Shown in pieces: positions 60,963-62,545 of a DNA stretch of 64,000 nt. How positions within the stretch are numbered: position 1 is the first letter of the stretch; every line of letters begins with the position of its first letter. The DNA comes from Vulcanimicrobiales bacterium (GTDB lineage Bacteria > Vulcanimicrobiota > Vulcanimicrobiia > Vulcanimicrobiales > Vulcanimicrobiaceae), in assembly GCA_038215615.1 (NCBI GenBank), contig JBBQQR010000003.1, positions 64,001 through 128,000 of the forward strand. The letters are read 5' to 3'. A program made the position numbers and the translations under genes. The notes beneath the pieces are model-generated. The model searched no databases and was not told where the DNA came from. It saw nothing but the letters and a program-made list of their open reading frames with translations.

Positions 60963-61007
60963 AGCGCGGGACCTGCCCACGCTATTGACCTACCACGGAC
61001 TAGCATA
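60963..61007 (-). promoter_or_regulatory. rimP leader hairpin with upstream -10 (TATGCT)
   Basis: AGCGTGGG-CAGGT-CCCGCGCT followed by U-rich TCGTTGTT, in the position of the known rimP leader attenuator. Confidence 0.65.
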
Positions 61008-61011
61008 CCTG

Positions 61012-61055
61012 AAAAATGCGACGGGCCGCAACCCCAGGTGGGGCGGGCCCCTCGC
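61012..61055 (-). terminator. Intrinsic terminator of the putative ncRNA
   Basis: GCGAGGGGCCCGCCCC-ACCT-GGGGTTGCGGCCCGTCGC then ATTTTT. Confidence 0.7.
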
Positions 61056-61226
61056 TCTTACCTACTTTGTGTCGGTTTACGCGTTACGAGCACGCTCTTC
61101 TTCCGGTCTACGTCCGGATGCCGCTGGGCGCTCGTCTGGCGCTCCTTAAATCGGGCGTGCTCCGCGGGCTCTACTGCCCGGTGGATCTTGCGGTTCCAAC
61201 CGCCCTCCTTACTTTGTCTCTGTGAC
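61012..61226 (-). ncRNA. Unannotated structured RNA of about 215 nt, family unresolved
   Basis: Bounded by its own promoter and terminator; several hairpins and long-range pairing; no convincing ORF. Confidence 0.7.
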
Positions 61227-61232
61227 ACCTCA

Positions 61233-61261
61233 ATTGTACGCCGACAAATGTCGGGTTTCAA
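61233..61261 (-). promoter_or_regulatory. Near-consensus sigma-70 promoter with a palindrome in the spacer
   Basis: TTGAAA-17 nt-TACAAT; spacer contains CCGACA-N2-TGTCGG (61241-61254). Confidence 0.8.
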
Positions 61262-61288: not shown

Positions 61289-62545
61289 CTAGGGAGGCGA
61301 GGGCGTGGACGGCGTGTAGGGCACCAGATTGCCGCTGCACGGGAACGTCTGGTCGGGCTCGACGATCCATGGGTCCTTGCCGGCGATCGGCTGGCGGATC
61401 ACCCAGCCCGTGCACATCTGAACGCCGGCGACTCGCTTCACCGACGTGACGTACATTTTTATGCCGCGTTCCTCGGGTGTCGCGCCCAGCGGCCAAAGTT
61501 TCCACCGCTGGCTCGCAACATTTTCCGTGTAAATGAATTTCGTTATCGCTGCGATGGCAGGCGGCGGCGTCGGCTCCGCCGGCTTGATGTGGCTGATGTC
61601 ACCCTTATACATACGCGGCGTCGCGATCGCGTACGGTCCCGGCGTCGGTAAGATATTCCGGAGACGCTGATTGAGATTGCGCGACGTTTTGGATGCCGGC
61701 TTCCCTTGCGCGGCCGCCGGATGCGGTGTCGACTCGACTGTTTGTATCGGTTTCGCGACCGAGCTGGATTTGACGGGGGCGATGCCCTTGGGTCCGGGCG
61801 AGCCCAAGGTCTTTGGACCCGGACTCGCGGCGCCGCCGCGCGAGATCGTTGGCTGCGGCAAGCGCGTGGGGCCCGGACTCGGCACGCCCGGCGTGGGTTT
61901 GCGAATCTGCACTTGCGACGTCATGCCGGGCGTCACGACCGCTTGCGGCGTGGCCTGCGCGATCAGCGGAGCAAATGTCGCTTGCGGGGCCTTCGGCTGC
62001 TCGATCTTCGGAACGGGCCGCGCGGTTGGCGCGGCCGTCGGGGCTTGTGTCGGCGGAGCGGTGGGCGGCGCATGAATCGTAGCGGCCACGATGCGCGCGG
62101 GCACGCTCGTTGGGACAGCTGCCACAATCGGAAGCGGCGTCAGTGCGATTTCGGGTTGCGTGGGCTGCGGGTTGGGCGCAGCCGAGGCTTCCGGCGCGGG
62201 CGTCGGATTGGGCGGCGCGGTCGGCGCAAACTTTGAAAGCTCGTGATGAACGGGCGGGTGCGGCGGCGCCGAGCGCGGCTGCGCGGCCGCCTGCTGCGGC
62301 GCGGTCCGCGCGTGTGGAATCGGCGGAGCAGCGTGCGGCACCGCGACCGGAACGGTTTTGGGAACAGCTTGGCTCGTCACCGTGACGATCTGCGATCCTT
62401 GCACCGACTCCGAGGAGGCCTGCTCGGAGGACGAGGTCGCGATCGAAAAGAGCAATGCCGCCAAAAGGGCATGCAAAATGAGCGAGGCGACAAAGCTCGT
62501 CGTCAAACGCTGCGGATGACGGCGATCGTTGTCGTCGCGCGGCAC
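61289..62545 (-). CDS. TonB/TolA-like proline-rich single-pass membrane protein
   Basis: TM with SLILH (SxxxH) motif, long Pro/Ala/Thr linker, small C-terminal domain with two Cys. Confidence 0.65.
   Translation of the reverse strand: MPRDDNDRRHPQRLTTSFVASLILHALLAALLFSIATSSSEQASSESVQGSQIVTVTSQAVPKTVPVAVPHAAPPIPHARTAPQQAAAQPRSAPPHPPVHHELSKFAPTAPPNPTPAPEASAAPNPQPTQPEIALTPLPIVAAVPTSVPARIVAATIHAPPTAPPTQAPTAAPTARPVPKIEQPKAPQATFAPLIAQATPQAVVTPGMTSQVQIRKPTPGVPSPGPTRLPQPTISRGGAASPGPKTLGSPGPKGIAPVKSSSVAKPIQTVESTPHPAAAQGKPASKTSRNLNQRLRNILPTPGPYAIATPRMYKGDISHIKPAEPTPPPAIAAITKFIYTENVASQRWKLWPLGATPEERGIKMYVTSVKRVAGVQMCTGWVIRQPIAGKDPWIVEPDQTFPCSGNLVPYTPSTPSPP

Follow-up and report, generated by a model that had tools for sequence, protein, structure and literature searches.

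Short ORFs programmed to stall or abort the ribosome are cis switches in mRNA leaders, and arrest peptides of the RAPP/RGPP type include SecM and ApdA/ApdP. The peptides of the dual-function small RNAs SgrS/SgrT, SR1/SR1P and RNAIII are functional products of 26–43 aa. In the parts of the sources consulted here, DPP, PPG, PPD and PPN are described as diprolyl arrest motifs relieved by EF-P (PMC6544042). MgtL, in the consulted parts likewise, aborts within its first six residues, MEPDPT, by intrinsic ribosome destabilization that acts near the N-terminus only (bioRxiv 10.1101/2021.02.02.429294; review PMC12856214), and in mgtQ Asp2 and Glu5 are the impeding residues (PMC8092293). Amongst non-coding RNAs, the bubble of the central Ms1 hairpin is needed for RNA polymerase binding, according to the consulted portions of PMC4191392 and PMC9130861. 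Upstream of rimP, Naville & Gautheret (2010; PMC2965389) described the rimP-leader; a larger conserved element is not reported in the consulted part of that paper.

The window, the whole 64 000 nt stretch of DNA that was analysed, contains an unannotated structured RNA of ~215 nt on the minus strand (61012–61226), between a 418-aa Pro/Ala-rich ORF and rimP–nusA. On comparative grounds this is a real, hitherto unannotated RNA family, with a strong signal for a putative stall-type mini-ORF.

The RNA unit and its neighbours

A first-pass annotation had placed here a promoter, several hairpins, a long-range helix, a terminator and six GGA motifs, and re-reading of the sequence located every one of them at the same positions (Table 1). 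The promoter matches the consensus at 10 of 12 positions, and a promoter scan returned one site (0.3 expected in shuffled sequence). A promoter-like pattern lies 5' of 121 of 127 homologous loci, a count that includes L022 and L023 from the unpublished genomes G028 and G030, as against one of 92 control windows. The terminator scan was at chance level (3 versus 2.3 expected) and picked up just a portion of the stem; the terminator has a short U tract, usually with 4–5 T in 8 nt (approximate). The 3' arm of this terminator doubles as the −35 box of a separate rimP promoter, and a rimP promoter pattern occurs in 23 of 26 rimP-upstream regions with the RNA and in 23 of 27 without it. Since rimP keeps a promoter of its own whether or not the RNA is present, the RNA is a unit of its own, which bears out the earlier description of it as self-contained and separate from the rimP promoter and leader.

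Table 1. Features of the RNA and adjoining elements (window coordinates)
Feature	Position	Strand	Remarks
Sigma70-type promoter of the RNA	61233–61261	−	TTGAAA 61261–61256, N17, TACAAT 61238–61233
Predicted ~215-nt transcript	61012–61226	−	5' end inferred from the −10 box
5'-terminal hairpin	61216–61226	−	Small, weak here; GUCUC-N-GAGAC or ACCUCGAGGU in many relatives
Shine–Dalgarno (SD) AAGGAGG	61204–61210	−	Its GGA is predicted to pair with UCC 61185–61183 (P1)
Hairpin P2	61190–61203	−	UUG start at stem end and loop; 3 of 5 pairs with two-sided change
Small ORF TTG...TAA, 17 aa	61146–61199	−	MEPQDPPGSRARGARPI; DPPG 61187–61176, stop 61148–61146
Hairpin P3	61165–61180	−	Within the ORF; from fold and alignment
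3' domain	61088–61162	−	P4 61162–61155/61095–61088, P5 about 61145–61126, P6 61118–61102 (CCGG-ACG..-CCGG)
Intrinsic terminator	61012–61055	−	−29.8 kcal/mol, short U tract
Separate rimP promoter, outside the RNA	61002–61031	−	TTGCGG 61031–61026, 18 nt, TATGCT 61007–61002
rimP-leader hairpin, known element distinct from the RNA	60963–60983	−	GCGUGGG...CCCGCGC with U-rich tail; fits the description in the consulted part of PMC2965389

The rimP-leader hairpin is kept across the family, with the RNA present or not. The 418-aa ORF (61289–62545, minus strand) is hydrophobic at its N-terminus and contains Cys in a C-terminal part that looks conserved; it stays 5' of rimP even in genomes that lack the RNA; neither this ORF nor the upstream ORFs of five relatives have a Pfam match. 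In two genomes (L220 and L191) the terminator and rimP promoter are retained and the RNA core is missing; in L191 unrelated DNA lies upstream, including the apparent end of a transposase gene. In sister family f3 (L240–L245) the best RimP match lacks the leader and promoter pattern and stands directly after another ORF, and three of nine RimP matches in that family have an internal TGA.

Contigs 80–99% alike within 61068–61210, at depths of 6.6 to 853, are present in four of four RNA libraries (four studies; 13 runs listed); they belong to relatives, the runs having been found with this stretch, and indicate presence only, with DNA carry-over possible. The absence of cover over rimP and most of the upstream gene is not evidence, because these runs were picked by this stretch and hold relatives, not this strain.

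Fold and covariation

The 215-nt RNA folds at −87.6 kcal/mol (z −3.86), and none of 200 shuffled sequences did as well. In the fold model a 5' hairpin is followed by a compact module, by hairpin P3, by a three-way junction that P4 closes around P5 and P6, and by an A-rich linker and the terminator. The module comprises a GGA/UCC helix (P1), a GG/AAGA loop and hairpin P2, and it folds alike across divergent copies; short paralogs of 125–140 nt (L138, L295) lack the 3' junction domain.

For covariation the structure was entered by hand, since RNAalifold put the 5' end of MAFFT alignment A1 out of register. A plain MAFFT alignment of 58 sequences gave pairing in 89.9% of cells and two-sided change at 9 of the 30 pairs, a figure that 4 of 500 shuffles reached. 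In a model-fitted alignment of 98 sequences, where the fitting itself favours the structure, 95.2% pair and 18 of 30 pairs show two-sided change (0 of 500 shuffles). P1 has no pair with two-sided change in the model-fitted alignment; it is thus unproven as a helix, its sequence being conserved for its own sake. Copies from unpublished genomes are excluded from both alignments, as they are from the 149-module set, the linker count and the terminator-state folding described below.

Covariation amongst relatives, the regions upstream of rimP included, had been proposed as a check in the first-pass annotation; the RNA is conserved there and its structure covaries. It is a self-contained, conserved and covarying RNA gene. 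The internal features first singled out, two GUAGA loops, CGCGGAGCAC and the six GGA motifs, are real in this copy and not conserved in the family. The GGA count per 140-nt core varies from 2 to 7, and the repeated GUAGA loop, like CGCGGAGCAC, is a genus-level feature and was discarded as a hallmark of the family.

Many copies (L247–L255, L046, L047, L089) begin at the predicted +1 with a self-complementary 10-mer (GUCUCGAGAC, ACCUCGAGGU or UCUGCAGA). This could provide 5'-end protection or mediate dimerization.

A mini-ORF in the conserved core

The core in this genome reads AAGGAGG, 4 nt, UUG and then E-P-Q-D-P-P-G (predicted peptide MEPQDPPG...), with the stop codon in the linker between P4 and P5. 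The best-conserved part of the RNA thus has the layout of an SD, a start, a short diprolyl ORF and an in-frame stop, which the initial, purely RNA view had overlooked; for this reason the RNA is probably not purely non-coding. GGAGG is present in all modules, but is part of the search definition. The SD duplex with an anti-SD motif has a predicted energy of −10.1 kcal/mol. The SD/start module folds at −11.0 kcal/mol, leaving the start partly sequestered. Amongst 290 GGAGG-plus-start sites in this genome, the single one with DPP or PPG in the first nine codons is this ORF.

In 149 modules an in-frame NUG occurs in 144, and an in-frame stop follows within 20 codons of the first Pro in 147, compared with 55 and 58 in the other frames; the script passed over second modules more than 150 nt away, and divergent covariance-model matches are included. 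Four second modules of this set have an out-of-frame NUG as well. Most loci came from a pattern that fixes NUG and QDPPG, and relatives are not independent, so that a binomial p of 1e-9 overstates the case; independent sets were therefore counted. The stop codon is in none of the search patterns. With one representative per 62%-identity cluster, the clusters not being fully independent, a stop is found in 35 of 35 versus 21 and 18 in the other frames. Modules picked by blastn have an in-frame NUG in 27 of 27 and none out of frame, and a stop within 20 codons in 27 versus 14 and 15. In the independent set of 13 second modules an in-frame NUG is present in all, with a stop in 13 versus 4 and 7. 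In rimP-upstream copies from pattern-negative genomes the figures are 26 of 26 for NUG and 26 versus 5 and 5 for the stop, and their motifs are QNPPG (20), QDPPG (3), QSPPG, EDPPG and QTPPG (one each). The P4–P5 linker holds 91 stop triplets in frame and four out of frame. The P4 landmark itself falls in all three frames (72, 20 and 6 sequences), and linker stops that stay in frame despite these shifts indicate that linker length compensates upstream indels. Copies L022 and L023 from the unpublished genomes are counted in the ORF, module (141), blastn-picked and residue tallies, and the conclusions are independent of them.

The distance from start to Pro changes by whole codons only (4, 5, 6, 7 or 10), and the SD gap is free, at 4 nt in most first modules and 11–14 nt in many second modules. 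Across copies the motif at codons 4–8 is (Q/E)-(D/N/S/T)-P-P-(G/K/N/D/E), and the third positions of CAR, CCN, CCN and GGN vary. DPP or PPG is retained in every module, across all 15 motif variants, D and G never being lost together. Peptide conservation ends at the motif, and in four modules the stop comes right after PPG. ORF length is 8 to 23 aa in nearly all copies; long ORFs occur in two of 141 (L128, L154).

Some features speak against translation of the ORF, amongst them the fold over SD and start and the SD–start spacings given above. NUG is missing in five of the 149 modules: L251 has ACG, L255 ATA and L267 ATC, and L262 and L269 have none in module 1, their second module keeping UUG. 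The later paralogs L292 and L293 lack NUG, with ATT only in frame. Starts are mostly non-AUG, with UUG at codon −5 in 119 of 141 modules, CUG and GUG in others and AUU, AUA, AUC or ACG in outliers; this could make initiation sensitive to IF3. There are also RNA-level constraints: CCU does not occur as first Pro codon in any of 141 modules, and CC is preceded by U almost without exception. Some of the codon wobble could stem from GG-A-GG/CC-N-CC pairing.

Distribution, loci and paralogs

The core pattern was found in 121 of 206 genomes of the family and in none of 94 from other families of the phylum, with none for a reversed-pattern control; by blastn the element is in 27 of 36 genomes of the family and in none of 24 outside it. 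Both tallies include unpublished genomes (G028 and G030; G261, G232 and G276). The 85 pattern-negative family genomes were followed up in part: 68 were searched for rimP and upstream DNA was obtained for 51 (one just 39 nt), of which 26 hold variant copies, and a covariance model run on 31 such genomes gave copies at other loci in 16, as judged by inspection. Pattern, rimP-upstream variants and covariance-model copies together place the element in at least 163 of 206 genomes of this family of uncultured soil bacteria (Vulcanimicrobiota/Eremiobacterota by record titles). The record titles among the matches listed are likewise Vulcanimicrobiota/Eremiobacterota, with a few full copies under other taxa. 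Before modules were counted, 54 of 120 contig-collection pattern matches were discarded on visual inspection as chance matches, having no hairpin and, for the most part, long ORFs.

Most copies lie just 5' of rimP on the same strand. Others adjoin DedA/VTT, NUDIX, pyruvate dehydrogenase E1, ammonium transporter, 3'-5' exonuclease, LepA or Ham1 genes, in some cases with the next gene on the opposite strand. Several genomes carry two copies, and some RNAs contain two modules in tandem. The tandem-module RNAs (L065, L119, L137, L259, L261–L265) measure 250–290 nt, and their second ORF is nearly always 11–14 aa with DPPK and has a fixed TCG-TAG at its end. In RNAs with one module, P6 (CGGA...UCCG) may be what is left of this second module. 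In the genome under study, the middle part of the RNA profile has a weak nhmmer match (E 0.004) at G000:C1:175645-175698 (+).

Pattern, blastn and covariance-model searches yielded no convincing copy outside the family; since the covariance model missed one known copy (G033), this means 'not found in those searched' and not absence. At E ≤ 0.5 the model gave matches in 11 of 45 non-family genomes, and the four inspected (L256, L268, L270, L275) lacked the module. In other phyla matches occurred in 0 of 5 genomes and, weakly, in 2 of 151 from the phylum used for the Ms1 comparison, where the match inspected (L277) was coding. Scans of viral sequences gave one and four matches, none with the layout of the element, and a loosened pattern, run on genomes across the class, matched no more often than its control.

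Comparison with described RNA classes

An Rfam scan, also proposed at the outset, gave no match to the RNA at E ≤ 10 and two irrelevant matches outside the element, and the stated lack of tRNA, tmRNA, SRP and RNase P hallmarks agrees with the absence of Rfam and ARAGORN matches at the RNA. A raiA motif model run on this genome found nothing at the locus. Assignment to tmRNA was rejected, the tmRNA of the genome being elsewhere (L299, G000:C7:80861-81214); that gene scores 116 bits with RF00023 and was missed by ARAGORN at default settings. A description of the element was not found in Rfam 15 or the literature searched; it could be present in RNA-motif catalogues or in the supplements of PMC9130861 and PMC2965389.

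The first-pass annotation had favoured an RNA-polymerase-binding RNA of the 6S or Ms1 class. Three results speak against 6S: there is no RF00013 match, the fold has several hairpins and a three-way junction in place of the long, centrally bubbled end-to-end hairpin of 6S RNA, and the genome carries a 6S-like gene at another locus. This gene, a probable divergent 6S RNA at G000:C5:71519-71698, was missed by RF00013 and found by blastn with the RF00013 matches that relatives carrying the RNA have at other loci, matches that are themselves below the gathering cut-off.

For Ms1 there is a model match in neither direction: RF02566 on this genome found nothing at the locus and two weak matches elsewhere (E 1.4–1.5), an Ms1 scan of L032 gave an unrelated weak match only, and nhmmer and covariance model R1 of the RNA found none on the Ms1 matches L184 and L185, which are below the gathering score. 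The long central hairpin with bubble and the two end hairpins of the ~300-nt Ms1 are absent from the fold, and Ms1 was rejected on these grounds. The resemblance to Ms1 named in the first-pass annotation has some basis: by eye and post hoc, L185 has a 5' hairpin followed by GAUCCACC and a similar promoter, without an in-frame start. Membership of the class does not follow; the RNA may still work like Ms1. Amongst the options first considered, 'a new class' comes closest.

Proposed mechanism and alternatives

The explanation we lean towards, by a modest degree and from comparison of sequences, is an independent mini-mRNA on which a ribosome would load and then be stalled or aborted. A strong sigma70 promoter would yield an RNA capped by the 5' hairpin and ended by the terminator, and the full SD would bring a 30S subunit to the weak, partly folded non-AUG start. 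After 5–7 codons the nascent N-terminus, acidic and proline-containing, would close with X-Pro-Pro-Z (DPP or PPG), and the stable helix P4 would stand just ahead of the ribosome. The ribosome might then pause at codons 5–8 until rescued by EF-P, which is encoded in this genome, or abort as on MgtL; Glu2, Pro3, Asp5, Pro6 and Pro7 of the predicted peptide fit both modes. With the ribosome held, the folded 3' domain would stay intact, to be unwound only when the ribosome runs to the stop just behind the 5' strand of P4. The state or lifetime of the RNA would, through this tie, follow elongation capacity (EF-P, Pro-tRNA, ribosome stability), and we infer that its translation, stalling and sensed signal serve an output in trans, by holding ribosomes, titrating EF-P, or gating or exposing the 3' domain.

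A bolder version seems possible, though doubtful: the RNA may represent a new class of abundant ribosome-parking RNAs, in which one or two SD–start–XPPZ modules hold 70S ribosomes in a form that EF-P can release, so storing ribosomes or titrating EF-P in slow-growing soil bacteria, with no control of neighbouring genes.

It is unlikely, but of the alternatives the least so, that the RNA is purely non-coding, its GGAGG/CCNCC and purine-rich bulge, of which each RNA has one or two, binding a protein (RNA polymerase, for example, as in Ms1) and the ORF being a by-product. The module folds alike in divergent copies, the invariant U and missing CCU fit pairing rules, the SD and start are sequestered, seven modules lack NUG, the high-depth RNA-library contigs suit an abundant non-coding RNA, and the Ms1 match L185 shares post hoc features with the 5' end. 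However, this reading leaves unexplained the in-frame stops at many positions, the whole-codon changes in start distance and the complementarity of DPP and PPG, and the pairing partner of the GG that follows CC lies upstream or downstream depending on the type. Nor is there an Ms1 or 6S model match or a long hairpin with a central bubble.

The proposal that the RNA is a cis leader or attenuator, translation of the ORF tuning read-through into rimP–nusA–infB as mgtL/mgtP do for Mg2+ transporter genes, is less probable still. It draws on the majority position just 5' of rimP on the same strand, the short U tract ahead of an operon that encodes translation functions, the MgtL-like N-terminus and, as a comparative signal, the short ORF with SD, start, Pro/acidic motif and stop. 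Position is not fixed, however: many copies stand beside other genes, some of these on the opposite strand, rimP has its promoter in most regions without the RNA, and L220 keeps terminator and promoter without the core. By equilibrium folding only, terminator pairing in 85 sequences is 0.93 without a ribosome, with one at PP and with one at the stop, and no antiterminator was found in these ribosome-state folds. Varying neighbours and a terminator that pairs alike in three states make cis attenuation unlikely and leave a role in trans; the RNA is independent of its neighbours.

We attach little probability to a dual-function small RNA whose released short peptide (fMet-x-x-Q-D-P-P-G...) is the effector, for instance on the ribosome tunnel or EF-P. 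SD, start, an 8-residue core and stop are conserved, but within the peptide just 3–5 residues are, its length varies as given above, its tail is set by RNA helices and its starts are weak. Least probable is a CsrA/RsmA sponge, as the first-pass annotation had also considered: csrA is in the genome (G000:C11) and GGA motifs are present in every core counted, but of the six here only that at 61197 is clearly unpaired (0.96; others 0.02–0.46), its loop is UUGAC, AUGAC or UUGAA in many homologues, two conserved GGAs lie in helices, and there is no Rfam CsrB/Rsm match.

The preferred reading, a mini-mRNA that holds or aborts its ribosome, places a putative stall-type ORF at the conserved centre of a gene that carries a promoter and a terminator of its own. 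This gene has changed locus, exists in duplicate in several genomes and in some RNAs has its module doubled in tandem. Should ribosomes load and stall on it, the cell would have an RNA-based means of parking them or of signalling EF-P/proline status in trans. Should they not, what remains is a covarying RNA family, hitherto unannotated, that most genomes of a widespread soil family carry.

Relation to known systems

The rimP-leader shares the operon with the RNA and is a separate hairpin. Like the RNA described here, Ms1 (RF02566) and 6S RNA (RF00013) are single-gene units of comparable size that start from a strong primary-sigma promoter and end at an intrinsic terminator; they differ in the bubbled hairpin and in the lack of a model match either way. 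SgrS/SgrT, SR1/SR1P and RNAIII are independent small RNAs with a small ORF, as here; they encode functional peptides, whereas in this family the putative stall-type core alone is conserved. EF-P-dependent diprolyl motifs and peptides of the RAPP/RGPP type, such as SecM and ApdA/ApdP, offer another parallel, in that conservation ends at the proline motif and later residues are free. The RNA differs from the RAPP/RGPP peptides in having no Arg, no long nascent chain and no downstream target gene.

A further likeness is to MgtL (the mgtA leader) and mgtQ/mgtP of Salmonella and E. coli, which also have a very short acidic/proline ORF overlapping RNA helices; MgtL starts MEPDPT and the ORF described here MEPQDPP, free-standing types having fewer acidic and Pro residues (TSQDPPG) than MgtL. 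Each of mgtL, mgtQ and mgtP belongs to a single regulated mRNA, as a cis leader or an intergenic ORF, and signals through stalling or abortion. The present RNA, by contrast, has no modelled terminator switch and is a promoter-to-terminator unit that occurs at several unrelated loci, sometimes with two SD–ORF modules.
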